From IMG/VR virus record IMGVR_UViG_2703718840_000011: a stretch of DNA of 17,603 bases, one strand, 5' to 3'. Numbering within the stretch: position 1 is the stretch's first letter; each line of letters begins with the position of its first letter. The notes below the pieces were generated by a model. That model did no database searches. It was not told the DNA's origin and saw nothing but the letters and a program-made list of their open reading frames with translations. Positions 358 through 16,462 of this stretch are shown here, piece after piece. Position numbers and translations under genes: made by a program. Source of the DNA: a virus (taxonomy: Duplodnaviria; Heunggongvirae; Uroviricota; Caudoviricetes).

Positions 358-486
358 TTCACCTGCAAGCAAACCGTTGTATCATGGCGGAATGAAGATG
401 AGCTAGGAATAATCTTATGAATCAGCTCAATATTCATATAAAAACATTTCGAACTTTGGTGTACAAAACTACATAGGGATAACTTT

Positions 487-1689
487 ATGTCTCTTCGTTT
501 CAGACAAACCTTTACTTTATTTCCTGGCGTTCGACTCAACATTGGCAAGCGTGGAATAAGTGCAAGCATTGGTATGCCTGGCGCAACTGTCAATGTTGGT
601 AAAAAAGGGGTTAGAGCAACTGTCGGATTACCGGGCACAGGCTTATCTTATACTACACCTACCTTGCCCTATGATGATGGATACTCAGTTACCAATCCAT
701 TAAATCCAGCCCCTACAGAACCTCATTTGGGGTCTGGGTCATCTCCAGAAAACACACCATCGAACGCTAAAATATATATGCCTGTAGCTGGCATGAATGA
801 AATATCCAGCGCTTCGGTAGAAGTCCTTACAAGTACCTCCCTTTTACCTTTACGAGATTTGATTGCTAAAGCACGAGAACAAAGAGCAGAGATAAAAGCA
901 GATCTTCAAGAGGCTCTTGCCGAAGAATCAAAACAAAAAAGCGAGCTGGCTCGACGCAAATCAAGTCTATTCCGTTGGTTTTACAAACGACGCATCGCAG
1001 AACTTGAGACACTACTCCCCCTAACCCAAGCTGAGATATCTCGCCTAGTTTCATGGGAAGACAGCACAAAAATAGCCATAACATTCGAGAGCAGTGATGC
1101 TTCACAGCGCGCATATGCAGCGATGGTCCATGCATTTGATATGTTAAAATCGAGTGTCAAAAAATGGGATATTACTGCAGATAAAGCTACAGACCAGTTT
1201 GCTGAAAGAACATTAGCAACCCGGTCTGTTAATCGTCACCCAGTTACCTTTGATTTTAGTTCAACGGATCTCATTCAATTTACAGGGCGTGCGATGAGGT
1301 TTGAAAATGCAAATGGAGACGATATTTTGCTTTATCCTGGAGTTGCAGTCATACCACGAGCCGATGGAGCATTCGCTCTGATTGATTTACGCGAATTACA
1401 AATTAGTTCAGAATATCTAAGATTCCATGAGGAAGAAGGTGTTCCCAGTGACTCACGCATAGATGGTTATACATGGGCGAAAACGAATAAGAATGGCTCA
1501 CCAGACCGTCGTTTTAAAGACAACTACCAAATCCCTATTTGCATTTATGGAAATATTACTTTCCATTCTCAAACAGGGGTAACTGAAGAATATATGGTAT
1601 CAAATGCAGATGCCGCGCACGCCTTTGCTGAGGCAGTAAAACGCTATCAGATTTCACTCACAGAAACAGAAGCGTTGGTACAAGCCTAA
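487..1689 (+). CDS. Hypothetical protein with N-terminal DUF4236-like glycine-rich motif (400 aa)
   Basis: Long ORF with AGGGA about 8 nt upstream of the ATG. N-terminus FRQTFTLFPGVRLNIGKRGISASIGMPGATVNVGKKGVRATVGLPGTGLSY fits the pattern I associate with DUF4236; the remaining ~340 aa have no domain I recognise. AT-rich relative to neighbouring phage genes. Confidence 0.7.
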   Translation: MSLRFRQTFTLFPGVRLNIGKRGISASIGMPGATVNVGKKGVRATVGLPGTGLSYTTPTLPYDDGYSVTNPLNPAPTEPHLGSGSSPENTPSNAKIYMPVAGMNEISSASVEVLTSTSLLPLRDLIAKAREQRAEIKADLQEALAEESKQKSELARRKSSLFRWFYKRRIAELETLLPLTQAEISRLVSWEDSTKIAITFESSDASQRAYAAMVHAFDMLKSSVKKWDITADKATDQFAERTLATRSVNRHPVTFDFSSTDLIQFTGRAMRFENANGDDILLYPGVAVIPRADGAFALIDLRELQISSEYLRFHEEEGVPSDSRIDGYTWAKTNKNGSPDRRFKDNYQIPICIYGNITFHSQTGVTEEYMVSNADAAHAFAEAVKRYQISLTETEALVQA

Positions 1690-1885
1690 TTTATCGCCGA
1701 TATGGGGACGAATCGTAGGTTAAAACCCCTCGAACAAAAAAACCTTAAGAACCAGACTATTATGGCTGGTTCTTATACGGAGGATTTGTTATTGTACAAC
1801 TCTTCTATCTGGTATATTTACGGATAGAACTGTTCGGGCTACTCAATCCTTTTTAAGTACAAATGAACAGATAGAAATAGTTATA

Positions 1886-2688
1886 TTGCAAGGAGCTATC
1901 ATGCACACTGAGTATATATGGCGATATCTTGACATAGAGAAGTTCTCTATGTTACTCGAACAAAATGCTTTATTTTTTTGCTCAGCAAAAAATTTTGAAG
2001 ATCCGTTCGAAGGTGAATTTGCTTGGGGACATACTGGCTATAAAAAATTCATTGAGACACAGGAAAAACTATGCGCTACTCATGGTGCCGGCATGGACTT
2101 AGAGCCTTTCATGGCATTCAATTTAAAGACACTTAAGGAAATAAGCGAGAGGACATATATAAGTTGCTGGCATTGTAACGAACATGAATCTGAAGCTATG
2201 TGGAAGCTGTATTGTAAAAACCCCGCTAAAGGCGTTGTCATAAAATCAAAGAAAAAAACCTCCAAAGCCAACTTGAAAATAATAATCTAAACAAACTACA
2301 ATTAAAACACGTAAAATACATCAAAAATTTCTGGATAAAACAATACAATCCAGAATCAGATGTATTCTTTAACAAGAGACCATCTTTCGAACACGAAAAA
2401 GAGTTTAGAGCTATTTTTCAAGAGAATACCTTTAACACTCCACCTGTAAAGGGAAAATTAGTCCCTGTATCTCTTAATAATCTGTTGGAAGAAATAAGGA
2501 TTTCACCTTTCGCAGATAAGGATTTCAAAAATGAAGTTTTACAAATTTCAAAAAAATATGGACTAGATCTAAAAGTCAAAAACTCTGAAATTGAAATGCA
2601 TCCCATCATGCATGTTGAGGAAGAAATAATTGCAGAAGGCCCCAATTGGTATCAGTCAAAAATCAGGTTGGCAATACGTGATGCTTAA
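1886..2688 (+). pseudogene. DUF2971-like protein gene interrupted by a -1 frame change in an A7 run (track ORFs 1886-2290 and 2485-2688 are the two halves)
   Basis: N-terminal half carries the DUF2971-like signature (RYLDIEKF...LFFCSAKNFEDPFEGE). Frame 1 is open from about 2230 to 2688 and continues the protein sensibly. Adding one A to the A7 run at about 2252-2258 would fuse both halves into one ~267-aa ORF, a typical DUF2971 length. Confidence 0.6.
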
Positions 2689-2740
2689 TCTTATATTGAA
2701 TTTTTTTATGTCTCCTGCTGAAACTAGCTAAAATTTACCA

Positions 2741-2776
2741 AGCCGCAGCACGTTATTGCATACAACGTGTATGCGG
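2741..2776. repeat. 36-bp imperfect palindrome, copy 2 (AGCCGCAGCACGTTATTGCATACAACGTGTATGCGG)
   Basis: Seen directly: 30/36 identity with the copy at 274-309, same orientation. Lies between the stop of the DUF2971-like gene and the stop of tfa (convergent), so it may also act as a hairpin terminator for the minus-strand tail operon. Confidence 0.5.
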
Positions 2777-2791
2777 CGTATCTCAAAACGA

Positions 2792-3376
2792 TTACTCCAT
2801 AACAGGGACAGCAGGCCACTCAATATCCGGTGCTACTGATGTATCAACACGGTTCAGCAACACCCGATACTTTTTCCAGGCTTCCAGCAATGAGGTTTCT
2901 TCCTCCGTTGCAATTTCCAGATCTGCAGCATCCTGAAGCGGCGCAATATGCTCACTGGCTACCTGCATCAGGTTGTTTTTTGTTTCTTCCGCCTCCCGGA
3001 TCCGGAACAGTTTTTCTGCTTCCGTATCCTTCACCCAGGCTGTGCCGTTCCACTTCTGAAACTCCCCTTCCGGCGATAACCAGGTAACATTTTCCGGTAA
3101 CGGACCGAGTTCAGAAATAAATAACTCGTCCCCTGACGCTACGTCATAAACCGTTTTACCCCGATGGTCTTCAACGAGATGCCACGATGCCTCATCACTG
3201 TTGAAAACAGCCACAAAGCCAGCAGGAATATCTGGTGGTGCAATATCGGTACTGTTTGCTGGCAGACCTGTATGAGGCGGAATATATGCGTCACCTTCAC
3301 CAATAAATTCATTAGTTCCGGCCAGCAGATTATAAATTTTTATGGTCCGTGCTTGTTCACTCATTCTGAATGCCAT
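2792..3376 (-). CDS. tfa: Tail fiber assembly protein (Tfa family, lambdoid type)
   Basis: 194-aa [57 protein letters not shown]... closely matches Tfa proteins of E. coli lambdoid prophages as I recall them. Start overlaps the stop of the upstream stf-type ORF (TAATG). Confidence 0.85.
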
Positions 3377-4455
3377 TATGCAAGCCTCACAATATAGTTA
3401 AATGCGATGTTTTTGACGGTGTTTTCCGCGTTACCCGCAGCGTTAACGGTGATGGTGTGTCCATGTGAACCAATCGCAACGGAGTGCGTATGCGCACCAA
3501 TACCTACAGTATGTGCATGTGCGCCAGAACTTGCTGCAGTACCAGACAGCGAGTGGGTATGAGCACCTGCTGACTGTGTCTGAATACGTTGATAATACGA
3601 TCTATAGGAAGAAGTCTCCGGGCTTACTTGATACTGTGAATTCTGGACATAAGTGAACCCACCGCCATCATAAAATGCTAACGCAGAACCGCCGCCTCCT
3701 GGCCAACGAATACCATTACCATGAGTATGAACACCGGCAGACCCCGTAGAGCCACTCAGACTGTGCGTATGCGCCCCGGTGTTATTCGTGGATTTAGTGC
3801 CGTAATCAAACGACGATGTGGTTTTCGTCCCTAAATCCGTACTGGATGCGCTGGCGCTGTGGGTGTGCGATTTAATGCCGTCCTGTTCCTGAGACAATAC
3901 GGCCCGGCCACTGGCGGGTTTGCCCTTGATTGTCCAGCCGCGCATATCTGGAATAACACCTGAAGGATAGGCAATAGCCAGTTTCGGATATGCTGCCTTA
4001 TCAAACGTCTGCCCCTGCATGATTGCATAACCTGCAGGTGGTGTATCTGATGGCCACGGCAGCGGAACACCTGGCGGAAACGCTTCAATATTTGCCGAGC
4101 CGTCAAATTTTACGCCGTTAATTGTCCTTGCAGTTTGCAATTTGGTTGCTGTGCTTGCATTACCCGATAAAGATCCAGTGATACCACCACTCGCGTTTAA
4201 TTTAGTTGCAATTGTAACATTGCCAGTATGGTTACTAATTATAAACGGCCTTAAGCTATTGTGCGTACCAAGACTGTTAAACTCATAACGGTATTTCACG
4301 TTAATCCCGTTCAGATCATCACTACCGGGAACGTTCGTCGAGGCATGGAGATACCCCGCGCTCAGCGTGGACTGATGTTCTGCTGCACTCGCTGGCGTAG
4401 CAGCGGCGACCTGCCAGACTACTGCGGACAAAATAACAGCACATAATTTACGCAT
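3376..4455 (-). CDS. Chimeric ORF: Lom-type signal peptide and N-terminus (~60 aa) fused in frame to the C-terminal part of a side tail fiber (Stf-type) protein
   Basis: N-terminus [59 protein letters not shown] is lambda Lom-like (signal peptide plus first beta strands). The rest is tail-fiber-like ([13 protein letters not shown], repeated HxH motifs, C-terminal [11 protein letters not shown]). Junction near 4270-4285. GAGG RBS upstream of the ATG. Confidence 0.7.
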
Positions 4456-4477
4456 AATTACCTCTCGCTTTTCTGCA

Positions 4478-4504
4478 ATAAAAAAGGCGCCATTTCTGGC
4501 GCCC
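4478..4504 (-). terminator. Rho-independent terminator between J remnant and lom' (tJ-like)
   Basis: On the minus strand: GGCGCC-AGAAAT-GGCGCC hairpin followed by TTTTTTATTGC, located between the J' stop and the lom' RBS. Confidence 0.55.
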
Positions 4505-4522
4505 GTATCTGGGTTATAAAAT

Positions 4523-5660
4523 TCAGCTAATCGTGATGCCTGCAGTGGCTTTCTTCATCACCACAACCAGCAAATCGCTGATACTTGCTGTGGGATACCA
4601 GTTATTTACCAGCCATGCTGACACCGAAAACTCCAGTGTCATGTGACCGTGACCGGCAGGCATATCAATAACACCACTGTAAATCAGCGTATTATCCAGC
4701 GCGGTACGGTTATAAATTTCAGCACCGTTTTTCCGTACTATCAGGCGGCATAACGAATAAATATCGTTATTCTCCCGCTCATGTTTAGCGCCGCTGAATG
4801 CCACCGCCGGAATAACAATCTGCCGGTCAAACGGCTGATCGTCATAAACCCTGACGGTGATGGTCCCTGATGGCCACCGTTCCGGTGCACGGGAGTCCCG
4901 GGGGAAAGCTTTGCCCACTGTTTTAACGAGATCGCCTTCAATCTGGTTGGCGGACAATTTTCCCAGAACCCGACAGTTCTCGTTAATCGTGACGTTGTTG
5001 AGCGTCCCGGAGTTCGCATTCACGTTACCGCTGATATCGGCATTTTTCGCCGTCAGCCGCCCGTCCGGTGTCAGGGAAAATGCCGGAGGATTACCGCCGC
5101 TGGTAATGGTCGGAGCCGTCAGGCGTTTCAGGAACACGTCGTTCATGAATATCTGATCGCCCTGACCAACAAACATCGGCTTTGTGTTGCCATTCGCAGG
5201 ATTAATCATCGCAATCCGGTCAGCAGCCAGAAGCACCTGACTCTGCATACCTGCTGGCGTATTCTCAATACCGGCTCCGATACCCGCAATATAAAGGCGT
5301 CCGTCCTTCATCTGCTGCAGTTTCACGGCCCACATGCTGTTCAGGTTATTATTTGTATCAACCTGAACTTTCTGTATCTGCTGGATTGCCGCACTCTGGT
5401 CTTCCAGTTTTTTATTGACGGTCTGCGTGATTTCATTGCTGACATTCGTAATGGACGTCCTGATTTCAGCCAGGTCCGGCGCAAGCTGACCGTTATCAAT
5501 CTGCGTCCACAACTCCTGGGCCAGATGTGTTTTCCCGATTTCTCCTTTGAAAAAATCCAGGTAACCTTCCGCATCATCGCTCGCCCGACCGACAGCCTCC
5601 ACGAATGCCGATTTGCCAACGGTGTTCACACTGCGAACGTAAAAATAATAATCATGGCCC
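4523..5660 (-). pseudogene. C-terminal ~380-aa fragment of J-type host specificity (central tail fiber) protein; N-terminal two-thirds deleted
   Basis: Translation from ...[39 protein letters not shown]... through [30 protein letters not shown] to the C-terminus matches the C-terminal region of lambda J as I recall it. The first ~34 codons of the track ORF (starting at 5758) are out-of-frame read-through of rusA sequence. Full J proteins are about 1100 aa. Confidence 0.7.
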
Positions 5661-5891
5661 GGTTTGATATTGATACTGGCGGCTATCCGGAGGAAACAAC
5701 ACGATCTCCACTGAAGCAGGTGCCGACGTTGGTTTCGGCAGGCGACGTAACTGCTCAACTATTGCTGCGCACGCCGCGCTCTGGAATTTGCGCCCCGCTG
5801 CGCTTATCAGACTCTTACCAGCAAACGCCCCTTTGTTGGGGTGTCGCCAGTACGTGTTCACGCTGGGCGGAAAAGGCAGGATCAGCTTCAT
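5652..5891 (-). pseudogene. rusA: RusA-family Holliday junction resolvase, N-terminal fragment (truncated at the deletion junction with J)
   Basis: MKLILPFPPSVNTYWRH... matches the RusA N-terminal LPxPPSxN motif. The ORF ends after 79 aa with non-homologous residues (YQYQTGP), whereas RusA is about 120 aa. GAGAGGGG RBS and ATGA overlap with the upstream gene are intact. Confidence 0.55.
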
Positions 5892-6214
5892 ACTTTCAGG
5901 CCCCTCTCATGTAACCAGTGGGCTGCACGCAGCCTGGCGTTTTCCTCACCGGCAAGCAGTGCGCGGATAATCCCGACCGCCTCGCTGTCGTCGTCCTTCA
6001 CAGCGGTATGAAGCGTTATCCCCCGTGCCACGCCACGCTTTATCGTGATGACGCCTTTTTTCTCCAGTGCGCGAAGATGCTCCACCGCTGCATTCACCGA
6101 ACGGTATCCCAGCATGGTTGCCACCTCCTGATTGGTTGGCGGAAAGCCACGCTCTTTCTGGTAAGAAATCAGCATATCCAGCACCTGCTGCTGGCATTGA
6201 GTTAACGTCGTCAT
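5888..6214 (-). CDS. Small winged-helix DNA-binding protein resembling the LexA N-terminal DNA-binding domain (no S24 peptidase domain)
   Basis: 108 aa; QQQVLDMLISYQKERGFPPTNQEVATMLGYRSVNAAVEHLRALEKKGVITIKRGVARGITL parallels the LexA DNA-binding domain (QQEVFDLI...[36 protein letters not shown]). ATGA overlaps at both ends and a GGAG RBS. Confidence 0.55.
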   Translation of the reverse strand: MTTLTQCQQQVLDMLISYQKERGFPPTNQEVATMLGYRSVNAAVEHLRALEKKGVITIKRGVARGITLHTAVKDDDSEAVGIIRALLAGEENARLRAAHWLHERGLKV

Positions 6215-6864
6215 GCCGCCATCTCCCTGACCAGTTTTTCCGCCTGCTGGCGAACCTGCACCAGAAAGGCTTCACCACATGCCTCAAGTTCATCGCGCCC
6301 GATGTAGCTGATTGCCGGTCCCTTCCAGGTCTTGTCGAAAACAGCAATAGCACCAGCGAAGAAAGCGCCTGTCGGCACCTGCTTCTCATCCTTCGGGATA
6401 AACCAGGCAGGCAGTTCAAAACCAATACGCCCGCGAATAAAAGCAATATGGTCCGCATCTTCCGGCCACCACACTTCGCTGGTGGCAGCTTTGATCAGGA
6501 AAACATAGCGCCCGCCCTTATCACGCATGGCACTGGCATGTTTCATGATGTAACGCATGCCGGTGATGTATTGTCCCTCATGCTGACTGGCGCGGCTGTA
6601 TGGGGGATTACCAAAGGCAGCACCTTTAAGCTCCGCAAGACGTTCTGACCAGTCATGCGCCAGCGCGTTATCTTCCGCCGTGTAATACGCGGCACATTTG
6701 GCGTTATCACCGTCAGTAAACAGATCCAGAACAAACGGGCCAAACAGGGTGTTAATTCCCCAGAAAATGTTGTCCGGCGTGCGCCACTGATCGCCCACTT
6801 CCTTCAGTTCATGGGCTGGTTTGTTCCGCAGTTCCACCAGCGCCTGGCAATATTTATTACTCAT
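6211..6864 (-). CDS. Phage-type DNA N6-adenine methyltransferase (Dam family)
   Basis: MSNKYCQALVELRNKPAHELKEVGDQWRTPDNIFWGINTLFGPFVLDLFTDGDNAKCAAYYTAEDNALAHDW... with catalytic NPPY motif (GNPPYS). I place the start at the internal ATG (6864, residue 12 of the track ORF), which overlaps the O-like stop by 1 nt and is preceded by a GGGGG RBS. Confidence 0.8.
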   Translation of the reverse strand: MSNKYCQALVELRNKPAHELKEVGDQWRTPDNIFWGINTLFGPFVLDLFTDGDNAKCAAYYTAEDNALAHDWSERLAELKGAAFGNPPYSRASQHEGQYITGMRYIMKHASAMRDKGGRYVFLIKAATSEVWWPEDADHIAFIRGRIGFELPAWFIPKDEKQVPTGAFFAGAIAVFDKTWKGPAISYIGRDELEACGEAFLVQVRQQAEKLVREMAA

Positions 6865-7817
6865 TAAGCCCCCACGTAATTCCCTGACAGATACCACTCT
6901 TCACCCGATGCAGCGCGCTTGCTGCTTTTCCGTAAACACCGCTCTTCGCGTTTTTCGGTGTACGTGCTGACGGACGGCGATAAGCGCAGGGAAAGCTCAT
7001 CCCATTTTTCCCGCAACTTCGACGGGCTGAGCACGTTACGGCACCAGAACGGATCGCGGCTGACGCGGCTGTACATCTCGCAGATTTGTTTGTGAGTACG
7101 ACCATCCTGCACACACATCAGGCGAATTTCGTTTGCCCAGGCTGTCCAGTTCGGTTCTTTGGGACGAACCACCTCGCCGTCACATTCGGCGGCTTGCTCG
7201 TACAGGGCGATGATTTTTTTCCAGAGCCACTGTGCGCAGGTCAAATCATCCTGCGTTCCCCACTGGCGCTTTTTAGGGCTGAATACAACCGCATCAGGAT
7301 GGCGAGTTAAAAAATCCTGTTCATCCGTCTGCGTGTCCGGTTGCGAAGCGTCCGGACGAGAAGGTTTTTTATCTGACGGATCATGTTTTGATTTTACTGA
7401 CGGATCCCCGCCAGATTCTGACGGGTGAAAACCCGCTTTTTTGCCAGATTTCGACGCATCAAATTTTGACGGGTCAGATTTTGATGCGTCAGATTTTGAC
7501 GGGTCAGAATCTGACAGTTGAGAAAATGCCGCTGCCTGAAGCTTCGCAACGTTAAGCTGATAAACATTCGACGCATTGCGGTTACCCTGGCGACGCGCCT
7601 TACGCGTTAACCAGCCTTCTGCTTCCAGCCGTGCGATAGCCGTTCTGACGGTACTCATCCCCGCGCCAATCTGACGGGCAATGGTTTCAATTGATGGCCA
7701 GCACACACCTTCGTCATTACTGAAATCAGCCAGGCGGGCCATAATTGCCACGCTGGATAATTTCATGCCTGATGCAGCGCAACCATCCCATACATAGCCG
7801 GTTAATTTAGTGCTCAT
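6864..7817 (-). CDS. Replication initiator, lambda O-like (N-terminal wHTH origin-binding domain, repetitive acidic linker, C-terminal domain)
   Basis: 317 aa; N-terminus MSTKLTGYVWDGCAASGMKLSSVAIMARLADFSNDEGVCWPSIETIARQIGAGMSTVRTAIARLEAEGWL is typical of phage replication O-type HTH domains. An internal repetitive linker (SDSDPSKSDASKSDPSKFDASKSGKK) is encoded by an iteron array. GAGG RBS 6 nt upstream. Confidence 0.7.
   Translation of the reverse strand: MSTKLTGYVWDGCAASGMKLSSVAIMARLADFSNDEGVCWPSIETIARQIGAGMSTVRTAIARLEAEGWLTRKARRQGNRNASNVYQLNVAKLQAAAFSQLSDSDPSKSDASKSDPSKFDASKSGKKAGFHPSESGGDPSVKSKHDPSDKKPSRPDASQPDTQTDEQDFLTRHPDAVVFSPKKRQWGTQDDLTCAQWLWKKIIALYEQAAECDGEVVRPKEPNWTAWANEIRLMCVQDGRTHKQICEMYSRVSRDPFWCRNVLSPSKLREKWDELSLRLSPSVSTYTEKREERCLRKSSKRAASGEEWYLSGNYVGA
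7369..7517. repeat. Iteron array (candidate phage origin of replication) inside the O-like gene
   Basis: Seen directly: about 8 copies of a ~15-bp unit with core (A/C)AGATTTTGACGGGTC. The last five (about 7445-7517) are strictly tandem: cagatttcgacgcat / caaattttgacgggt / cagattttgatgcgt / cagattttgacgggt / cagaatctgacag. Parallels ori-lambda, which lies within O. Confidence 0.55.
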
Positions 7818-7826
7818 GACCGACCT

Positions 7827-8165
7827 CTACTTCCCTGAATTTACGACGAAACTGTTCGAGCGGGCTGAAGCACTCATGCTCATAGCCTTCGCGGAGGTAG
7901 ATAACCCGTTGTGTTTCCGGCTCCCAACGAATGACTCTGACGGGCACTCCGTAGTGATCTTTGAACCAGCGGTTAACTTGTCGCAAAGGACTGTCTCCTT
8001 CTGCCGGTTGAAATCACCCACAGCCCACTCTGCAAAGCTGTGGGTTACAATTTCCCTGTCACCTGGTACATTTACTGCATAGCAATACTCCACCTTCGCT
8101 TTTCCACCCGGTACAGGAAGTGCAATCAGTTGCGAGCGACGGTAGTGTGTTGTTAAACTGTTCAT
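7827..8165 (-). CDS. Hypothetical protein (112 aa) between cII-like and O-like genes
   Basis: Start overlaps the cII-like stop (ATGA) and the stop lies 10 nt before the O-like start. The C-terminal third is low-complexity, so the true extent is uncertain. No family recognised. Confidence 0.4.
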
Positions 8166-8776
8166 GCGTTAGTTTCTCCACAACCAGAAGCAATCGACGC
8201 CACGACGCCCGGAGCTGCACACTCGCGGGCGTCATTACTTTCTGAAATGCAAAAAATTTTGTAGACAAGTGCTGCATGCTCCTGCAGCTTCGAAATTGAG
8301 AGATACAGCTCGTCGTTAATTGCTGTCTTCTCATGCGGTTCCACTACACCGTCTTCGATTGCTGAACGAATCTGTTTTGAATAACTGCCGATCTGTTCAA
8401 TGACTTCCAGCAGACGCTGGTTAATATCGGCGTTGTCCACATCCTCGACGTCAGGAAGAGACACAAAGACGCCATTTGCAGACTGCGCCACAGCATCAGC
8501 AATGAAGTGAGTTCCACCAGCACGTTGCAAAATCATTGCCCATCCCAGCGGGAAAATCTGATCGCCATCAGCACGAAGGCGGTTAAATAATGCGTTCTCT
8601 GTTACATCCAGCCAGTCAGCTGCTTCAGCGTAACCACCCGGCAACTTTGCGATAGTTTTTCTGACAGCTTTCACGTACCACTCAGGCTGTTTTTCTACTT
8701 TCCAGTGATGCTTACCCACGGTTAGCCTCATCGTTCTGTGGTTTCTGTTAATCGATTTATCCATTAGATTTTTCAT
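8162..8776 (-). CDS. CII-like regulatory protein (phage 186 CII / YdaT-like); start uncertain
   Basis: Sits immediately downstream of cro. The segment [25 protein letters not shown] resembles the 186-CII-type motif (LRNKLNPEQPHQFTPPELWLL). The track ORF begins at a GTG (8833) inside cro; in-frame ATGs at about 8776, 8764 and 8731 are more plausible, none with a strong SD. Confidence 0.45.
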
Positions 8777-8957
8777 AAAGCTCAGGTTTAAATGGCAACC
8801 GTCCGCAAGTTCTATATGCAGCTTCTGCTGCACGTCCTTTTGGAATTAACTGGCCCGGACGGTTTCGCCACTGATAAACGGCTTCAGTTGTTATGCCGAA
8901 AAAAGCAGCAACTTTCTCAATACTGCCGAAGTAGCTTTCGATATCGTCAGTTGTCAT
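8757..8957 (-). CDS. Cro-like small HTH regulator (YdaS-type)
   Basis: 66 aa, divergent from the cI-like repressor with a ~97-bp operator-containing intergenic region; GGAGGG RBS. HTH-like segment VAAFFGITTEAVYQWRN. Confidence 0.65.
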   Translation of the reverse strand: MTTDDIESYFGSIEKVAAFFGITTEAVYQWRNRPGQLIPKGRAAEAAYRTCGRLPFKPELYEKSNG

Positions 8958-9054
8958 ACGCCCTCCAAACTAAGTTTTATTAGATGCTAATTACAAATCT
9001 ATCTTTGGTCAATAAAAACTAAGATTACTTAGCAATTCAAGAAATGGTGCTCCT
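8958..9054. promoter_or_regulatory. Immunity switch region (OR-like): divergent promoters with palindromic operator candidates
   Basis: Palindromes TTAGATGCTAA (about 8980-8990) and CTAAGATTACTTAG (about 9019-9032); ACTAAG repeated at about 8969 and 9018. Candidate minus-strand promoter TTGACC-17 bp-TAGCAT whose -10 overlaps the first palindrome. Confidence 0.4.
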
Positions 9055-9681
9055 ATGGAAACGGTTGGTCAGCGTATAAAAGCTCTGAGAAGAGTTACCA
9101 GAACGTCCCAGAAAGAATTGGGTAAATTTTGTGGAGTAAGCGACGTTGCTGTGGGGTACTGGGAGAAAGACATCAATACCCCTGGTGGGGAGGCACTTTC
9201 GAAATTAGCGAAGTTCTTCAATACGTCAATAGATTACATTCTTTATGGTGCTGAGTTTGAAGGCAAACTCGTCACAAACATGCGCAGAGTTCCTGTAATA
9301 TCGTGGGTTCAGGCTGGGCAGTTTACTGAGTGCAGGGCAGCAGAAGTGTTTAGTGAAGTGGACAAGTGGGTAGATACATCATTAAAGATTGGTGATAACT
9401 CATTTGCATTAGAGGTTAAAGGTGACTCCATGACTAACCCTAATGGCCTCCCAACAATACCAGAAGGCGCAACAGTGATTGTAGATCCAGATGCAGAACC
9501 TCGTCATGGAAAAATAGTCATCGCTCGACTTGATGGAACAAACGAAGCTACAGTAAAAAAATTAGTCATCGATGGCCCTCAAAAGTTTTTAGTGCCATTA
9601 AATCCTCGGTATCCCAACATCCCTATCAATGGTAATTGCCTTATCATTGGTGTAGTCAAAGGAGTTCAATACGAACTCTAA
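9055..9681 (+). CDS. cI-like prophage repressor (N-terminal XRE-type HTH, C-terminal S24 LexA-like autopeptidase)
   Basis: 208 aa; HTH QKELGKFCGVSDVAVGYWEKD; C-terminal domain with Ser nucleophile in GDSMTNP and Lys in ATVKKLVIDG, the hallmark of RecA-stimulated self-cleaving repressors. Confidence 0.85.
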   Translation: METVGQRIKALRRVTRTSQKELGKFCGVSDVAVGYWEKDINTPGGEALSKLAKFFNTSIDYILYGAEFEGKLVTNMRRVPVISWVQAGQFTECRAAEVFSEVDKWVDTSLKIGDNSFALEVKGDSMTNPNGLPTIPEGATVIVDPDAEPRHGKIVIARLDGTNEATVKKLVIDGPQKFLVPLNPRYPNIPINGNCLIIGVVKGVQYEL

Positions 9682-9695
9682 GACCTCTCTTCTCT

Positions 9696-9763
9696 AACTA
9701 AGGCACCGAACTAAGAAAAGTTTGGTGTTTTCTCTTGCCATAATAACTAAGTTAAGTTAGATT
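9696..9763 (+). promoter_or_regulatory. PL-like early-left promoter/operator candidate immediately downstream of cI
   Basis: Three AACTAAG copies (about 9696, 9709, 9745), sharing the ACTAAG core seen in the cI-cro intergenic region. Candidate promoter TTGCCA (about 9735-9740), 17-bp spacer containing AACTAAG, TAGATT (about 9758-9763). Confidence 0.35.
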
Positions 9764-9865
9764 TTATGTCAAAGATAACGAACAGGCAGGACGCCCACGA
9801 AGTAGCCGCCGGTGGCGTATGAATGACCGGATGATTCGTTAAATACTATGTGTAAGAGAGCGCAA

Positions 9866-10068
9866 ATGAACCGTTATTTCACATGCTCGTTTTGTGGCGC
9901 AAACGAGCTGCAGGCAAAAAAATCATCGCCAAAGGCGGAAAAGATGAAGTTGCTATCTGCTCTGAGTGCGTAGTCTTGTGTGTCGGAGCATTAATCAATA
10001 TCAGCACAACTATTCAGTTCACACCAAATGAGAATGCGCCTTTAGATGCGCGGAAATCTGGAGGTTAA
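9866..10068 (+). pseudogene. Small ClpX-N-terminal-type C4 zinc-finger protein ORF, split by a -1 frame change at an A7 run (slippery heptamer A AAA AAA)
   Basis: ATG at about 9866 opens MNRYFTCSFCGANELQAKK..., which stops after 35 codons. The track ORF 9883-10068 in the -1 frame continues ...KKIIAKGGKDEVAICSECVVLCVGAL. Joined, they give CSFCG...ICSECVVLC, similar to the ClpX zinc-binding domain (YCSFCGKSQHEV...YICDECVDLC). The frames meet in the A7 run at about 9916-9922. Confidence 0.5.
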
Positions 10069-10076
10069 AGAACAAA

Positions 10077-10352
10077 ATGAAAGTCCAGATTTTAAACAAT
10101 AGTGGTGAAGTCGTTTGGTCATACGACATAGCCGCTCCTGTAGATCAGAGCGGCGATAGCTGGACCAATGGGAAACATCAGATTATGGCTGGAGTTGTAT
10201 TCTCTTTACACCGTGCTTTGGAACAGGCTGAAGTATTTCCATCAGACCCTGAATGGAAATGGCCTTTTTCTATTTGTCCAAATTCGGAGAGCACATTTCA
10301 GAAAATTGGTCAGAAAGTCGCACTCGAAGAGCATCAGCCAACTGTTTTCTGA
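10077..10352 (+). CDS. Hypothetical protein (91 aa)
   Basis: GGAGG about 10 nt upstream of the ATG and immediately after the stop of the zinc-finger ORF, which is operon-like. No family recognised. The 3' end overlaps a convergent ORF. Confidence 0.45.
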   Translation: MKVQILNNSGEVVWSYDIAAPVDQSGDSWTNGKHQIMAGVVFSLHRALEQAEVFPSDPEWKWPFSICPNSESTFQKIGQKVALEEHQPTVF

Positions 10353-10515
10353 TTTTTTCAGGTAACTCGTCGGCATCGCAGAAACAACAACGCTCGATCA
10401 TGTTGAAAGCCGATTCGTAGAACTGTTTCTGCTGAGTGTCGCTGAGACAGGAAAAGAGCGACGTTACGATGATTTTATTAATTGCATTATCAAGTTCTTT
10501 TTCATCAAAAGTCAT
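10270..10515 (-). CDS. Hypothetical protein (81 aa), convergent to the early-left operon
   Basis: Plausible amino-acid composition; AAGGAAAA RBS-like sequence 5-6 nt upstream of the ATG. Its 3' end overlaps the + strand 91-aa ORF by about 83 bp, so one of the two is probably shorter or not real. Confidence 0.35.
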   Translation of the reverse strand: MTFDEKELDNAINKIIVTSLFSCLSDTQQKQFYESAFNMIERCCFCDADELPEKIRKQLADALRVRLSDQFSEMCSPNLDK

Positions 10516-10769
10516 TTGATTTTCCTTTTATGTATACGGGCTTAAAAGGATACCACCGAGCCTGAAGTGGTGAAAAGACAGGCACATAACAGCTAAGTAT
10601 TTTCAACCAGAGAGAATCCTTAGCGTTGTGGTGAATGCGGCTCAGCGCACGCGGGTTAAGGTTGAGGCTGACAGTCGACCTTCTGTGGATACCCACCCGT
10701 CTGGTGTGCAACCTTCGCCAGGCACCGGGAGGCACCCGGCACCACAACTTTATGCTGTGTGTAGTCCTG

Positions 10770-10815
10770 GCGGTACCAGTTTGTACCCTTGCTTCCGGCT
10801 GGTACCGCTCTTTTT
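10770..10815 (+). terminator. Rho-independent terminator inside the early-left transcription unit
   Basis: GCGGTACCAG - 19-nt loop - CTGGTACCGC followed by TCTTTTTAC, a 10-bp perfect stem with a T-run on the + strand. Confidence 0.5.
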
Positions 10816-10904
10816 ACAAAACAGAGAAGAGCATCACCGGACGACGGGCTCATAACCCAATCCATCCGGGCGGCTGCCACCGCAGGTGTTCTTCTCTGTT
10901 TTGT
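10816..10904 (+). other. Large stem-loop: perfect 15-bp inverted repeat (ACAAAACAGAGAAGA ... TCTTCTCTGTTTTGT) separated by ~59 nt of GC-rich sequence, in the leader of the yfdP-like gene
   Basis: Seen directly, immediately after the terminator T-run and about 50 nt before the next gene's RBS. The stem can extend by a few pairs and the interior contains sub-hairpins. Confidence 0.45.
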
Positions 10905-10952
10905 GGAGAAACCAACCGACCTTGCAGGGTCGATATGATGAGGAGCAGCAAA

Positions 10953-11315
10953 ATGGCTAGCGAACGCAGTACTGATGTGCAGGCATTTATCGGGGAGCTG
11001 GACGGCGGCGTATTTGAAACCAAAATCGGCGCAGTTCTCAGTGAAGTCGCTTCCGGTGTGATGAACACGAAAACCAAAGGTAAGGTCTCGCTCAACCTGG
11101 AAATCGAACCGTTTGATGAGAACCGTGTGAAAATAAAACATAAACTCTCATATGTTCGCCCGACTAACCGCGGGAAAATTTCCGAAGAAGACACCACCGA
11201 AACACCGATGTATGTCAATCGCGGTGGTCGCCTGACTATTCTGCAGGAAGACCAGGGACAATTACTGACTCTTGCCGGTGAACCTGACGGAAAACTCCGC
11301 GCAGCAGGTCATTAA
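10953..11315 (+). CDS. Hypothetical protein, 120 aa (YfdP-like by position and length)
   Basis: Start chosen at the internal ATG preceded by GAGGAG with 7-nt spacing. The long track ORF from 10635 is an artefact of GC-rich structured sequence upstream. Length and position match what I recall for yfdP of CPS-53; the sequence identity is not confirmed. Confidence 0.55.
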   Translation: MASERSTDVQAFIGELDGGVFETKIGAVLSEVASGVMNTKTKGKVSLNLEIEPFDENRVKIKHKLSYVRPTNRGKISEEDTTETPMYVNRGGRLTILQEDQGQLLTLAGEPDGKLRAAGH

Positions 11316-11379
11316 TATCGTTTTTAATTAACTGATTATTTATCTCATCACTGAATATTTTATATAGTGAGGACTGATT

Positions 11380-12204
11380 ATGTCTCAGAACTTAGACGCA
11401 ACCGCAATTAATCAAATCCATGCCCTTATTTCTGCTCAGGGTGTTAATGAAATTATCAGTAAGATTGGTGCCGATGCTGTGGCATTGCCTGAGAATTTCC
11501 GCATTCATGATCTGGAAAAATTTAATTTAAATCGCTTCCGTTTCCGTGGTGCGCTTTCCACTGCCAGCATCGATGACTTTACCCGTTATTCTAAAGATCT
11601 TGCAGATGAAGGCACCCGCTGCTTTATCGATGCTGATAATATGCGTGCCGTCAGTGTGCTTAACCTGGGTACTATTGATGAACCAGGTCACGCAGATAAC
11701 ACCGCCACTCTCAAACTGAAAAAGACAGCACCGTTCTCTGCCCTGTTGTCTGTTAACGGCGAGCGTAACTCCCAGAAGTCACTGGCAGAATGGATTGAAG
11801 ACTGGGCCGACTACCTTGTGGGCTTTGATGCTAATGGTGACGCCATTCAGGCAACCAAAGCTGCTGCGGCGATCCGTAAAATCACAATTGAAGCGAACCA
11901 GACCGCTGATTTTGAAGATAATGACTTCAGCGGCAAACGCTCCCTGATGGAGTCTGTCGAAGCGAAGACCAAAGACATTATGCCTGTGGCATTTGAATTT
12001 AAATGCGTTCCGTTTGAAGGTCTGAAAGAACGTCCGTTTAAATTACGCCTCAGCATTATCACTGGCGATCGTCCTGTACTGGTTCTGCGCATTATTCAGC
12101 TGGAAGCGGTGCAGGAAGAAATGGCTAACGAATTTCGTGATCTGCTTGTTGAGAAATTCAAAGACAGCAAAGTAGAAACCTTTATTGGTACTTTCACCGC
12201 CTGA
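11380..12204 (+). CDS. yfdQ: YfdQ-like prophage protein (274 aa), function unknown
   Basis: 274-aa ORF with GAGGA RBS. Length, N-terminus ([14 protein letters not shown]...) and the yfdP-Q-R-S-T gene order match my recollection of the CPS-53/KplE1 yfdQ gene. Symbol given on that recollection, not a search. Confidence 0.7.
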
Positions 12205-12216
12205 TTTCATTACTGC

Positions 12217-12240
12217 AAATGCCCCTGCGGGGGCATTTAT
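12217..12240 (+). terminator. Hairpin (AAATGCCCC-TGCG-GGGGCATTT) after the yfdQ-like gene; weak terminator or attenuator
   Basis: 9-bp GC-rich stem seen directly, with only a short T tract (ATTTAT). Confidence 0.35.
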
Positions 12241-12331
12241 GGAAACGTAATTAACTCAATAATCACCGGATGGTGAGGGCTTCCTTTTACCAGAATTCAG
12301 CGCGGTGCAGTGCATATACGTGGAGAATAAA

Positions 12332-12868
12332 ATGTCATTTATTAAAACTTTTTCCGGGAAGCATTTTTATTATGACAAGATAAATAAAGACGACATCGAT
12401 ATTAACGATATCGCGGTTTCCCTTTCAAATATCTGTCGCTTTGCCGGTCATCTTTCGCACTTCTACAGCGTCGCCCAACATGCGGTTCTTTGCAGCATGC
12501 TGGTGCCGCAGGAATTTGCTTTTGAAGCGTTAATGCATGATGCAACAGAAGCGTATTGCCAGGACATCCCGGCTCCACTGAAACGCCTTCTTCCTGACTA
12601 TAAACGGATGGAAGAAAAAATAGACGCCGTAATCCGTGAGAAATACGGGTTACCCCCGGTTATGAGCACGCCCGTGAAATATGCCGATCTCATCATGCTG
12701 GCAACCGAACGCCGCGATCTCGGGCTTGATGATGGCTCTTTCTGGCCTGTACTGGAAGGTATCCCGGCAACAGAGATGTTCAAAGTGATTCCACTGTCGC
12801 CAGGCCATGCCTATGGGATGTTTATGGAACGTTTTAACGAGTTATCGGAGTTACGCAAATGCGCATGA
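12332..12868 (+). CDS. yfdR: HD-domain phosphohydrolase (YfbR-type 5'-deoxynucleotidase fold), YfdR-like
   Basis: Start at the internal ATG (MSFIKTFSGKHFYYDKIN) preceded by GGAGAATAAA, giving 178 aa. H...HD metal-binding motifs (SVAQHAV, ALMHDATEAY). Confidence 0.75.
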   Translation: MSFIKTFSGKHFYYDKINKDDIDINDIAVSLSNICRFAGHLSHFYSVAQHAVLCSMLVPQEFAFEALMHDATEAYCQDIPAPLKRLLPDYKRMEEKIDAVIREKYGLPPVMSTPVKYADLIMLATERRDLGLDDGSFWPVLEGIPATEMFKVIPLSPGHAYGMFMERFNELSELRKCA

Positions 12869-13221
12869 ATGTTTTCGAAATGGAAGGGTTTCTTCGCGGG
12901 AAATGTGTACCGCGAGATCTGAAAGTGAACGAAACAAATGCTGAGTACCTAGTACGTAAATTCGACGCGCTTGAAGCTAAATGTGCGGCACTGGAAAACA
13001 AAATAATACCAGTGTCAGCTGAACTGCCACCTGCAAATGAAAGTGTTCTGTTATTTGATGCTAACGGAGAAGGCTGGCTAATTGGCTGGCGTTCTCTCTG
13101 GTACACCTGGGGACAAAAAGAAACCGGAGAATGGCAGTGGACATTTCAGGTCGGGGACCTTGAAAACGTCAATATCACTCACTGGGCAGTAATGCCGAAA
13201 GCACCGGAGAATAAGAAATGA
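12859..13221 (+). CDS. yfdS: YfdS-like hypothetical protein (120 aa)
   Basis: Start overlaps the yfdR-like stop (translationally coupled). Length and order match my recollection of yfdS. Confidence 0.65.
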   Translation: MRMNVFEMEGFLRGKCVPRDLKVNETNAEYLVRKFDALEAKCAALENKIIPVSAELPPANESVLLFDANGEGWLIGWRSLWYTWGQKETGEWQWTFQVGDLENVNITHWAVMPKAPENKK

Positions 13222-13433
13222 GCGTGATAAAAACTCATACAGGAATTGTTATTACCCGAAACGGTCCGCAGGTAAAAAAACTGCACCAGACAAAGCGGAT
13301 GTGGGTCGTCGGAGAAAACGAGTTTTACCACAAAGAAACCGGACGCCGCCACTTTGCAGAAAATACGCGCCGCCGACTGCTCCTGGACAGCATCAGGCCA
13401 ATTAAACAGGTAGCAACCAGAGAACAAAATTAA
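13218..13433 (+). CDS. Hypothetical small basic protein (71 aa) in the yfdT position
   Basis: ATGA overlap with the upstream gene. K/R-rich. Shorter than the ~100 aa I recall for yfdT, so no symbol assigned. Confidence 0.5.
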   Translation: MSVIKTHTGIVITRNGPQVKKLHQTKRMWVVGENEFYHKETGRRHFAENTRRRLLLDSIRPIKQVATREQN

Positions 13434-13494
13434 TTATCAGGACTGAAATTTGATATTACTGCCCGTGTGCAGCGGGTTAAGTGGAGAAACAGCC

Positions 13495-13704
13495 ATGGCA
13501 AAACTAATGAAAGCGAGCCAATGGGGACGCCGTGAATTCTCTAATGGCTCAATTCCTGACAACCGAACGATAAAACGCTGGGTCGAGAACGGTCTGCTCA
13601 TGGGGCGTATAGTGGACGGTTCTGTTTTTGTCTGCGAAACAGAAAAATGGGGAGTCGACTCAATGGTTAGTCAAGCTGTTCGCAAGTTAATAAATGAGGG
13701 ATGA
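13495..13704 (+). CDS. xis: Excisionase (lambda Xis-type)
   Basis: KASQWGRREFSNGSIPDNRTIKRWVENGLLMGRIVDGSVFVCETEKWGV parallels lambda Xis (LQEWNARQRRPRSLETVRRWVRECRIFPP...GREYLFHESAVKV). Start chosen at the ATG with GGAG 8 nt upstream. Its stop overlaps the integrase start. Confidence 0.6.
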   Translation: MAKLMKASQWGRREFSNGSIPDNRTIKRWVENGLLMGRIVDGSVFVCETEKWGVDSMVSQAVRKLINEG

Positions 13705-14885
13705 CCATGGCGGCAAGGCCACGTAAAAAAGAATACAGACATCTTCCTGATTATCTGGTTTTTGATAAAGATCGAGGTGTTTATAAATTCACACTTATTA
13801 CCGGAAAAAAGAAAAATATAGGTAAGGATCGGGCAATAGCCGTTGCAATCGCCAGAGAGTACAACCTGAGGATGCGATCAGAATTATACCCATCAGTGGA
13901 TAATCTTATTAGAGAATCTGGCGGGGTCACCGGAGAAGCAAAACCATTTGCTGAACATGTCGATCACATAATGGCCAGAATTATCGAAGACGAACGACCT
14001 TCCCAGAGTACCTTAGATGACTGGAAAAATGACGCTCTACGCGTAAAAGCATTTTTCGTAAATGTTCCGGCATGCGATATCGAACTTGAACACGTTAATG
14101 CCTACATCAACAAATATCATGCCAGCGCATCCGCAAATGTGCAGAACAGAAAGGTCAGCTTTCTTAAAAAGTTGTTCTCTTATGCGGTCGATGAATCACT
14201 AATGCAGGATAACCCGGCCATCAGAAAAAAAATGCGTAGGACTGATGAGAAGAAAAGACGGCGCCTGTCACTCGAGCATTTTATAGCTATCAGGCAGGCC
14301 GCTGCACCATGGTTAAGAACAGCAATGGACCTAGCATTGCAGACTACACATGCACGACTCGAAGTATCGCGAATCCGTTACTCAATTCGCGAACCTAAAG
14401 ACGGTTTATGTGGATGTGTTTGGTTCGAACAACCACAAAATGGCATATATGGTACACTATACATCCATAGGCAAAAAGTACAAAAAAAGGAGGCATCACA
14501 TGTTGCAATACCAATTGGTGAAGAATTGAAACGGATAATTGACAATAGCCGTGACAATGTGGCCAGTCCCTTTGTCGTTCATAGAATCCCAGAACGGCAT
14601 GTTAAACGCAGTAAAGAGGTTTCGCACCCAACTCAAGTTGCACCAGATTATTTGAGTCGGTCATTCTCTTCCGTGCGAGACAAACTCGGACTATGCAATC
14701 ATCTAGCAATGGAACAAAGACCTACATTCCATGAAATAAGAGCTTTGGCAGCTCACCTATTTGATAAACAAGGGATTGATCCGCAGGGACGAATGGCACA
14801 TAGCGATGCGAAATCTACTAAAATTTATACTAAAAATCATATAGATTGGATTGTTGTCCCTCATGGAGAAATTAAAACCGGTTAG
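13701..14885 (+). CDS. int: Tyrosine-type site-specific integrase (lambda Int family)
   Basis: 394 aa. C-terminal catalytic region with H-x-x-R (TFHEIRALAAHLF) and the tyrosine motif (MAHSDAKSTKIYTKNH). Arm-binding-like N-terminus. Xis immediately upstream. Confidence 0.9.
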   Translation: MTMAARPRKKEYRHLPDYLVFDKDRGVYKFTLITGKKKNIGKDRAIAVAIAREYNLRMRSELYPSVDNLIRESGGVTGEAKPFAEHVDHIMARIIEDERPSQSTLDDWKNDALRVKAFFVNVPACDIELEHVNAYINKYHASASANVQNRKVSFLKKLFSYAVDESLMQDNPAIRKKMRRTDEKKRRRLSLEHFIAIRQAAAPWLRTAMDLALQTTHARLEVSRIRYSIREPKDGLCGCVWFEQPQNGIYGTLYIHRQKVQKKEASHVAIPIGEELKRIIDNSRDNVASPFVVHRIPERHVKRSKEVSHPTQVAPDYLSRSFSSVRDKLGLCNHLAMEQRPTFHEIRALAAHLFDKQGIDPQGRMAHSDAKSTKIYTKNHIDWIVVPHGEIKTG

Positions 14886-15022
14886 TTATTAAATTCTCCA
14901 CTTTATTTTGACTGACAATAACGGTTGCTAAGGCATAGAGTAAAGCTTAATTTAAAAGGCAGTTCTATGCCCATTTACCATAACTCCTCCCTTGTCCAGA
15001 AAGCAATATTTATTAATAAAAT

Positions 15023-15985: not shown

Positions 15986-16065
15986 CTCCTTTTTTATAAA
16001 ATAACATTTTAAATCATATGATTATGGAGGCACAAAATCCAGTAATTAGTTTTCAAGCCGGTTGT

Positions 16066-16428
16066 GATGTAGTTCGAGGACAAACTGAAACGTATTATTG
16101 ATAACAGTCGCGATAACGTTGCCTGCCCGTATATCGTTCACCGTATACCGAGCGTAATAACAAACGCAGTAAAGAGGTATCCGCACCTGCCTATCTTAGC
16201 CATACTTTTCATTGCCCCGTGATTCGTTAGGCTTGTGTAATAATTTGACGATGGAGCTGCGCCCCCACATTCCACAAAATACGCGCACTAGCTGCATTTT
16301 GTTTGATAAACAGGGAGTAGACCACAAGGGCTCATAGCCCACAGCGACGCGAAATCAACGAAAATTTATACGCGGAACCATATGATTGGGTAATGCTTCC
16401 GCACGGTGAAATTAAATACAATGCATAA
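16066..16428 (+). pseudogene. Decayed 3' fragment of a second, related tyrosine integrase gene
   Basis: Seen directly: nucleotide similarity to the 3' end of the intact integrase (e.g. identical AAACGCAGTAAAGAGGT; ...GCGATGCGAAATC.ACTAAAATTTATAC...; ...CACGGTGAAATTAAA). Translation gives KLKRIIDNSRDNVA.P.IVHRIP, then frameshifts and stops, then ...AHSDAKSTKIYTRNH...PHGEIK. It lacks the 5' two-thirds of the gene. Confidence 0.65.
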
Positions 16429-16430
16429 TA

Positions 16431-16458
16431 AAATTGGCCTCAAATGAGGCCAATTTTG
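16431..16458. terminator. Bidirectional rho-independent terminator (perfect palindrome AATTGGCCTCA-AA-TGAGGCCAATT flanked by A- and T-runs)
   Basis: Seen directly: AAAATTGGCCTCAAATGAGGCCAATTTTGG. Lies between the integrase remnant (+) and the convergent minus-strand operon. Confidence 0.6.
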
Positions 16459-16462
16459 GGGA

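Follow-up and report, generated by a model that had tools for sequence, protein, structure and literature searches.

The window that we analysed, a 17,603-nucleotide stretch of DNA held in IMG/VR as record IMGVR_UViG_2703718840_000011, is an Escherichia coli lambdoid prophage at tRNA-Pro (proL), between yejM and narP. In it, a truncated rusA gene (rusA′) is joined to the C-terminal third of J (J′), the gene of a lambda-J-type tail-tip and host-specificity protein. The sequence leaves very little doubt that this junction is a real deletion of ~25 kb in a defective prophage, and taken on its own it is ordinary prophage decay. Set beside the junctions of related prophages, it very probably belongs to a recurrent class of deletions that is specific for the dinucleotide TA and dependent on a motif, and for which one base-precise site within rusA is by far the hottest endpoint.

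The junction between rusA and J

In the original prediction, a deletion that brings truncated rusA next to the C-terminal third of J had been placed between positions 5640 and 5700. A three-way alignment of the window with its rusA and J parents bears this out and puts the crossover inside the sequence TATCC at 5684–5688. The J parent reads GGCGGC-TATCC-AGTAC, the rusA parent reads CCGGT-TATCC-GGAGG, and the window reads GGCGGC-TATCC-GGAGG, so that the two parents have 5 base pairs (bp) of perfect identity at the junction, or 8 of 9 when CGGnTATCC is counted. On one side, rusA′ matches the intact rusA of L003 (L numbers are our locus labels) and of E. coli CCUG 73778 down to 5680/5684 with 99.8% identity, and on the other, window positions 4400–5688 are 99.9–100% identical to the intact 3480-bp gpJ of L005.

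Both products are fragments, because intact RusA has 129 amino acids and intact J ~1160, and the possibility that these are two full-length small proteins is thereby excluded. The first estimates of ~75 codons for RusA and ~380 residues for J were near the true values of 69 residues and 388 codons. As read, the RusA′ open reading frame (ORF; 5652..5891) encodes 79 amino acids, of which 69 are RusA residues and the last 10 are an out-of-frame tail. Intact RusA matches Pfam PF05866 over residues 6–118, and full-length RusA resolvases have ~120–130 amino acids, with acidic catalytic residues from PPD-N-R-I-R-D-L-D onward; RusA′, with 69 of the 129 residues, is a gene fragment and not a functional member of the RusA family. 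J′ is matched by the PHROG families tail fiber and central tail fiber J. It keeps the last 388 codons of a protein that is ~1,130–1,160 amino acids long when intact, with tail-tip assembly domains at the N-terminus, and it has no native start codon; an ORF of 411 amino acids that opens with a TTG at 5758 runs across part of rusA′ in a different frame.

On the intact CCUG 73778 relative, with which both flanks of the junction are colinear, ~25.4 kb separate the rusA site from the conserved J site. The genes between them (KilA-N, DUF968, Q, lysis, terminase, head, and most tail genes) are absent from the window, which agrees with the earlier statement that everything from Q to most of the tail was gone, and their loss also upholds the view that the element is unable to build particles. 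A search of 5,426 complete E. coli genomes found no copy of the exact window junction; it is present in the IMG/VR contig L008 and, among NCBI draft genomes, in four proteins on 6 contigs.

Recurrence of the rusA endpoint and the TA motif

A protein search with the 79-amino-acid ORF returned many E. coli proteins that are identical to RusA through ...VEIVLFPPD and then continue into unrelated tails, including DUF968, two methylase positions, lysozyme, Rz-like, terminase, Q, J, tail fibre, and others. Divergence falls at residue 70/71 (after residue 69) in 32 of 64 E. coli-type RusA clusters, and at any other residue in three clusters at most. In every diverging cluster residue 70 is one of T, S, N, I, K, R, and M, all of which are encoded by ANN codons, and this fixes the coding-strand end of the retained rusA as exactly ...CCGGATA. 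At the DNA level, 17 distinct junctions keep the N-terminal side of rusA (|TATCCGGAGG), and 7 distinct junctions of a mirror class keep its C-terminal side (GGATCCGGTTA|) with the late genes and are deleted into the early genes. Both classes of product keep the TA, and the overlap is therefore 2 bp. The partners include KilA-N, DUF968, Q, methylase, lysozyme, terminase, J, stf, the O-like gene, ymfL, and yfdR. Scans for rusA ends shifted by 1 nucleotide (nt) gave alleles with single-nucleotide polymorphisms or nothing.

Three finished genomes carry different deletions that end at the same rusA base: LR-27 (rusA′::J, at another J position and at the prfC locus), LD39-1 (rusA′::DUF968), and S115 (rusA′::KilA-N). 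Junctions of the TA-type class in finished genomes include those of MG1655, LR-27, LD39-1, S115, N2250, and 02A16CRGN003. Some junctions are inherited and shared between contigs (L007/L014, L009/L013/L015, and the window with L008). Most of the IMG/VR contigs represent prophage regions from the genomes of isolates, and some lineages are perhaps over-represented among them; a metagenome scan gave one locus, and a contig scan for the intact rusA site gave one match in Shigella flexneri.

Wherever gene order or parental alignment can be checked, the events at the rusA site are colinear deletions, and they run in both directions. No inversion was seen among the junctions, and no locus has the rusA site split by an insertion. 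The single possible case of something other than a deletion is L011, where from 3748 the rusA junction has neighbouring genes on the opposite strand and a partner without identification, so that an inversion or a join to unrelated DNA is possible. In L009/L013/L015, the rusA TA runs directly into the interior of a truncated IS66-family element (L013, ~390–3161), with a GTAAGCG end on the far side only. A natural rusA allele (L157–L165) has TG in place of TA at the dyad centre, GGTTGTCCGG, through a synonymous change of GAT to GAC; all 9 copies found are intact, which is too few to judge protection from breakage.

The TA is required on the partner side as well. Of the 37 junctions with parent sequence, 36 have TA in the partner parent exactly where the two sequences meet (13/13 and 7/7 for the two rusA classes and 16/16 for a second site in the O-like gene), where chance would give 1/16 each. 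The single exception has lysozyme as its partner, and the parent there is just 94.5% identical. All 37 joins are seamless, without trimming, filler, or gained or lost bases, and the identity at junctions is 2–7 nt and always includes the TA. Even where the partner has a CGG arm (J-a, KilA-N, and the L155 partner), it is the TA, rather than the 3-bp CGG match, that holds the crossover, which argues against a simple homology search.

The rusA site is a 14-bp near-palindrome, TCCGGT-TA-TCCGGA. We scored TA sites by their matches to CGG-N-TA-N-CCG, with a maximum of 6, over the 1,486 TA sites in ~35 kb of two intact relatives, and rusA was the sole site to reach 6/6. The window's partner in J, GGCGGC-TA-TCCAGT, scores 5/6, and the product site in the window, CTGGCGGC-TA-TCCGGAGG, scores 6/6. 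Among partner sites, 12 of 22 score at least 4, compared with 6% of background TA sites (binomial p = 9e-10), and 4 of the 15 score-5 sites were observed as partners. When 38 sites are pooled, the strongest preferences are for C at −4 (p = 3.5e-5) and G at −2 (p = 6e-7), followed by C at +2, C at +3, and G at +4 (p from 4e-4 to 1e-3), giving the dyad consensus C-S-G-K-TA-Y-C-C-G. The consensus is enriched, yet roughly one partner site in three has hardly anything besides the TA, and part of the same data went into deriving the motif.

A scan of the score-5 site in the O-like gene yielded 5 + 11 = 16 distinct partners, with the CPS-53 junction of E. coli K-12 as one of these cases, though the scan was not fully blind, as the site was chosen after it had already been seen at the L144 and K-12 junctions. 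A control TA site with a score of 0, 135 bp away, gave one variant, which is probably a mosaic allele. TA sites in KilA-N, DUF968, J-c, and the HTH/O-gene are each used in more than one pairing, and TA joins also occur without rusA, namely lom′::′stf in the window, J with the O-like gene in L004, J with KilA-N in L002, L150, and CPS-53 of K-12. TA joining is a major class of deletions and not the sole one, since the perC deletion of the window and the lexA′::cro′ deletion of LD39-1 are not of TA type.

Other observations concern individual sites. Four further TA sites that score 5/6 are intact in the remnant (7583–7584, 8723–8724, 5281–5282, and 11165–11166), and these are predicted to be sites of future breakage; the one at 8723 has been used as a partner in L168. 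L150 holds two TA-type deletions, one joining rusA to methylase and one of 6.9 kb (GGGCGA TA CTGGCA), and the octamer TACTGGCA is present at three unrelated partner sites (stf-a, methylase-a, and the site of the 6.9-kb deletion in L150). The coding-strand sequence CCGGATAA of the hot spot presumably also lies within the E. coli repetitive extragenic palindrome consensus (…GCCGGATAAGGCG…), and CGGATAAC presumably within the lac operator; both we take to be probably coincidence.

Mechanisms that may account for the deletions

A fixed end, a 2-bp overlap, an obligatory TA, seamless joins, a dyad motif, and the reuse of sites together suggest an enzyme. A sequence-specific and probably dimeric enzyme would make cuts 2 nt apart in the two strands, at the centre of the dyad, and the ends would be rejoined conservatively to a second TA site, either by exchanging strands directly, in the manner of recombinases whose core is 2 bp, or by ligation of complementary TA overhangs. 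Deletions that remove Q, lysis, and morphogenesis genes would be kept because the prophage is thereby disarmed. The same central dinucleotide is present in both partners and no base is gained or lost, as in conservative recombination with a 2-bp crossover. We lean slightly towards this explanation as a whole, that is, a recurrent TA class of deletions made by conservative site-specific breaking and joining with a 2-bp TA overlap. As for its central step, the chances that the conservative joining is catalysed by an enzyme, rather than being of a repair type, seem to us a little short of even. Only tentatively do we suggest that E. coli or its lambdoid prophages may harbour an unrecognised break-and-join activity with a 2-bp TA core and a preference for C-S-G-K-TA-Y-C-C-G, which would have its best site in rusA and would be a main route from these prophages to cryptic remnants, including CPS-53.

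Several considerations weigh against an enzyme of this kind. No candidate for it is encoded in the window, where the sole recombinase is a tyrosine integrase, and members of the family carry different integrases; a relative, L155, has a resolvase/invertase gene near its tail fibres. The motif was derived partly by eye from the sites that were tested, with the rusA palindrome alone defined a priori, and several partner sites have just the TA (scores of 1–2), unlike a strict recognition site. Extra identity is enriched on the side where a 3′ end would anneal, which fits repair or priming equally well, and deletions alone were seen, while a recombinase with a palindromic core might also give inversions. 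In addition, the “parents” are relatives with 91–100% identity and not true ancestors, the independence of events was judged by distinct partners and not by phylogeny, and all of the support comes from sequence comparison.

Much of the same evidence can be read as repair. A break, a nick, or a replication stall at the centre of the rusA palindrome would leave a 3′ end (...GGATA-3′ or ...GGTTA-3′) that anneals through its terminal TA, and sometimes through more bases, to single-stranded prophage DNA and is then extended or ligated, by microhomology-mediated end joining or by template switching. This would suit the 2–7 nt of junction identity that always includes TA, the many low-scoring partner sites, and the exclusively colinear deletions in both directions. 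It would also suit the extra identity on the side of the retained rusA 3′ end, which is TCC, TCCG, TCC, TC, and T in one class and CGGT in the other, with no stretch of at least 3 nt on the opposite side. Nevertheless, we consider repair-type joining, the main rival, less likely than not. It still requires a base-precise lesion that it does not explain (the local hairpin is no stabler than shuffled sequence, z = −0.03), and it accounts neither for the reuse of partner sites in pairings free of rusA nor for a CGG arm on the partner side that never pairs with the invading end. Trimming or filler is found in 0 of the 37 junctions with a parent, and the endpoint is fixed to the base at both the rusA and the O-gene sites, where microhomology-mediated joining would show variable endpoints and variable homology.

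An insertion sequence (IS) or a TA-targeting transposase, of the IS630/Tc1-mariner type or like IS30 with its 2-bp duplications, might have acted at the rusA TA and left deletions by excision or next to the element. The obligatory TA kept on both sides does resemble a TA target duplication, and one rusA junction abuts the truncated IS66-family element. That case, however, is a join to the interior of a truncated IS and not to an IS end. No IS or terminal repeat is present at 5684–5688 or at the other TA junctions with parent sequence, as an IS-mediated adjacent deletion would call for, no insertion splits the rusA site at any locus, and the partners are the interiors of ordinary phage genes, all of which makes a transposon origin very improbable. 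Still less credible is that nothing special occurred, with a one-off illegitimate deletion in the window and a recurrence created by shared ancestry, selection for the loss of rusA, or artefacts of assembly and gene calling. Prophage deletion remnants are indeed common, some junctions are inherited across contigs, and many of the protein clusters come from short-read assemblies. But a single ancestral event cannot yield more than 40 junctions each with a different partner, selection can produce neither single-base precision nor the TA of the partner (1/16 by chance), the junctions are present in finished genomes, and the control TA site is not hot.

Comparison with known systems helps to place the TA class. 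Illegitimate recombination at short homologies in E. coli and lambda, for example in lacI deletions and lambda bio transducing phage, has varying endpoints and homology. The TA class shares with it deletions that look RecA-independent and have a few bp of identity, and differs from it in that one endpoint is fixed to the base, the TA is always shared, there is a dyad motif, and sites are used in several pairings. Serine recombinase crossovers, including those of P1 Cin at quasi-sites, require a central dinucleotide common to both sites. They resemble the TA class in their identical 2-bp overlap, dyad flanks, conservative joins, and use of a good site together with weaker look-alikes; unlike them, the window has no serine recombinase gene and only deletions were seen, and CSGK-TA-YCCG is unlike hix/gix/cix (…AAACC-NN-GGTTT…) or the AT-rich res site I. 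The transposons of the IS630/Tc1-mariner group and piggyBac, with its seamless excision, are cut and pasted specifically at TA or TTAA. An obligatory TA at both sites and a single TA left behind are features that they have in common with the TA class, which has no transposon ends or transposase and in which the deleted segments are ordinary phage genes of varied extents. A nicking endonuclease, GajA of the Gabija system of B. cereus, has the optimal site AATAACCCGGTTATT (PMC8136825). This site is degenerate and near-palindromic, with a GC core of CCGG type and a TTAT/ATAA wing, it shares 8 of 10 positions with the rusA site, and GajA is a defence nuclease that tolerates degeneracy. However, GajA nicks within the GC core, between CC and GGG, and leaves 1-nt ends, while the prophage breaks flank the TA, and the enzyme studied is from Bacillus.

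Other candidates were tried and rejected. A type IIS cut from the adjacent GGATC (AlwI-like, 4/5) would have the correct position in rusA, but the partner sites have no GGATC. In L007 and L012, where the partner lacks it, the T of TCCGG is retained, which a BspEI-type T^CCGGA cut cannot explain. Paired cuts 5′ of CC in the style of RusA, or a gyrase-type 4-bp stagger, predict that −1 and +1 come from the same parent, which is not so in L007 and L012. An integron-type crossover between G and TT was found at the junction in 0 of 120 TTATCC loci. Hin/Gin/Pin sites have their flanks in the wrong order, and a TTATCC half-site would put the crossover 12 bp off. Fragility of a hairpin or cruciform was set aside because the fold is no better than that of shuffled sequence, GajA because its similar site is cut at a different position, and the Rpn nucleases because no sequence specificity has been reported for them (PMC5350276). 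Of the proteins encoded next to rusA in intact relatives, DUF968 gave a borderline match to HNHc_6 (26.9 against a cut-off of 26.6), and no solved structural relative was found for the DUF968 and KilA-N proteins.

The remnant, its relatives and the significance of TA joining

Positions 5680–17603 of the window are 100% identical to the CCUG 73778 prophage and to several other strains, save for one gap of 479 bp in perC. The CCUG 73778 prophage is complete. After rusA it continues with KilA-N, DUF968, Q, methylase, lysis, terminase, portal, head, tail, J, lom, stf, and tfa, and it ends at DinI and tRNA-Pro. The genes of interest, including rusA and J, are on the minus strand of the window (Table 1). 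Both att copies lie outside the window. A tRNA gene was not found within it; L004, a relative, has a repeat of the 3′ part of tRNA-Pro at a distance of ~18.8 kb, past the two ends of the window.

Table 1. Positions of junctions, genes, and gene fragments in the window.
Feature	Position	Strand	Basis and remarks
tfa, tail fibre assembly, intact	2792..3376	-	PHROG 105, E 5e-100
lom′::′stf in-frame fusion ORF, 359 amino acids	3376..4455	-	~60 residues of Lom signal peptide/N-terminus and C-terminal ~300 of Stf
lom′::′stf TA junction	4278..4279		alignment; stf parent GACTGT TA CCCGAA (score 5), lom parent GTCCG TA AACTC
J′ (lambda-J-type tail-tip/host-specificity), last 388 codons	4523..5688	-	stop 4523; gpJ identity, PHROG hits
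Deletion junction	5684..5688		TATCC in both parents; obligatory TA is 5684–5685 (three-way alignment)
Truncated rusA	5684..5891	-	codons 1–69 and first base of codon 70; start 5891
LexA-DNA-binding-domain protein, 108 amino acids	5888..6214	-	immediately upstream of rusA
Dam-type N6-adenine DNA methyltransferase	6211..6897	-	PF05869 in relative; PHROG 111
O-like replication initiator, 317 amino acids	6864..7817	-	PHROG 391 over residues 1–293
perC (yfdN) 479-bp deletion junction	6943..6944		overlap TC on plus strand, GA on coding strand
O-like gene TA site, intact, ATTGCGGT TA CCCTGGCG, score 5	7583..7584		second recurrent site
Immunity region	8162..9681		CII-like YmfL 8162–8833 (-), cro-like 8757–8957 (-), cI/LexA-type repressor 9055–9681 (+)
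Early-left genes yfdP, yfdQ, yfdR (5′-deoxynucleotidase), yfdS and a small ORF	10635..13433	+	annotation of relative
Tyrosine integrase, 394 amino acids	13701..14885	+	PHROG integrase families

Two more deletions have shaped the remnant. One is a TA-to-TA deletion of 2,698 bp that made the lom′::′stf fusion, the protein of which is identical to KJJ70863.1 and could conceivably be a fibre tip that is secreted or targeted to the outer membrane. The other, in perC, is not of TA type and fuses the O-like initiator to the final ~27 codons of perC; the last ~28 residues of the initiator are PerC-derived, with PerC-type activator families matching residues 286–317. The stretch from the integrase to the distal tRNA-Pro repeat (14886–17603 in the window and 19310–22510 in L004) contains a DUF2971 gene, a frameshifted integrase fragment, and two hypothetical genes, a combination that looks like what is left of an older element, in tandem with the prophage.

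The original prediction had further held that the immunity, replication, methylase, xis, and int genes are apparently intact. This stands for the cI-like repressor, the cro-like and CII-like proteins, the Dam-type methylase, and the 394-amino-acid integrase, which all look intact, and it is not borne out for the O-like initiator, whose C-terminus is replaced, or for the putative xis, an 84-amino-acid ORF (13450–13704) assigned by position, for which a profile search gave no family match. The description of the element as excisable and replication-competent goes beyond the evidence, given the two additional deletions, the altered initiator, and the att sites that are both outside the window, although it may be possible.

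The window element is an ordinary cryptic lambdoid prophage, closely related to CPS-53 (KplE1) of E. coli K-12; e14 and Rac are other cryptic lambdoid prophages that arose by deletion. CPS-53 shares the gene family of the window (yfdK-yfdT, the O-like yfdO, perC/yfdN, and the Dam-type yfdM) and, like the window, has a remnant architecture with early genes abutting tail-fibre fragments. They differ in the integration site and integrase (argW and IntS in CPS-53, proL in the window) and in what was lost, as CPS-53 has lost the immunity region and rusA, whereas the window keeps the immunity region and the start of rusA and has lost Q through J. The join in CPS-53 between yfdO′ and the region upstream of yfdP is of TA type and lies at the O-gene site of the window, GCATTGCGGT-TA (L166, MG1655, 9586–9587). 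A second CPS-53 junction (yfdM′/yfdL′, ~8122) is ambiguous and reads GTA[C/T]GGGGG.

In the open-access literature, to which our search was confined, we found no common junction mechanism for the cryptic prophages CPS-53, e14, and Rac and no description of a base-precise, TA-specific, and motif-dependent class of deletions with a hot spot in rusA, and the site sequence occurs in no paper there. The recurrent TA mechanism appears to be undescribed.

The origin of cryptic remnants is usually put down to random deletion followed by selection. Our data point to a non-random process in one large family of E. coli prophages, in which deletions start at a few predictable sites and join TA to TA without a scar. 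For annotation, this accounts for the many odd “RusA-X” fusion proteins in databases. The CPS-53 junction of K-12 and the natural TA-to-TG allele of rusA allow a direct test of the idea in standard strains. Should an enzyme prove to be behind the deletions, genome stability, phage defence, or prophage domestication would gain a new player, and the sequence of its site would predict where prophages break.

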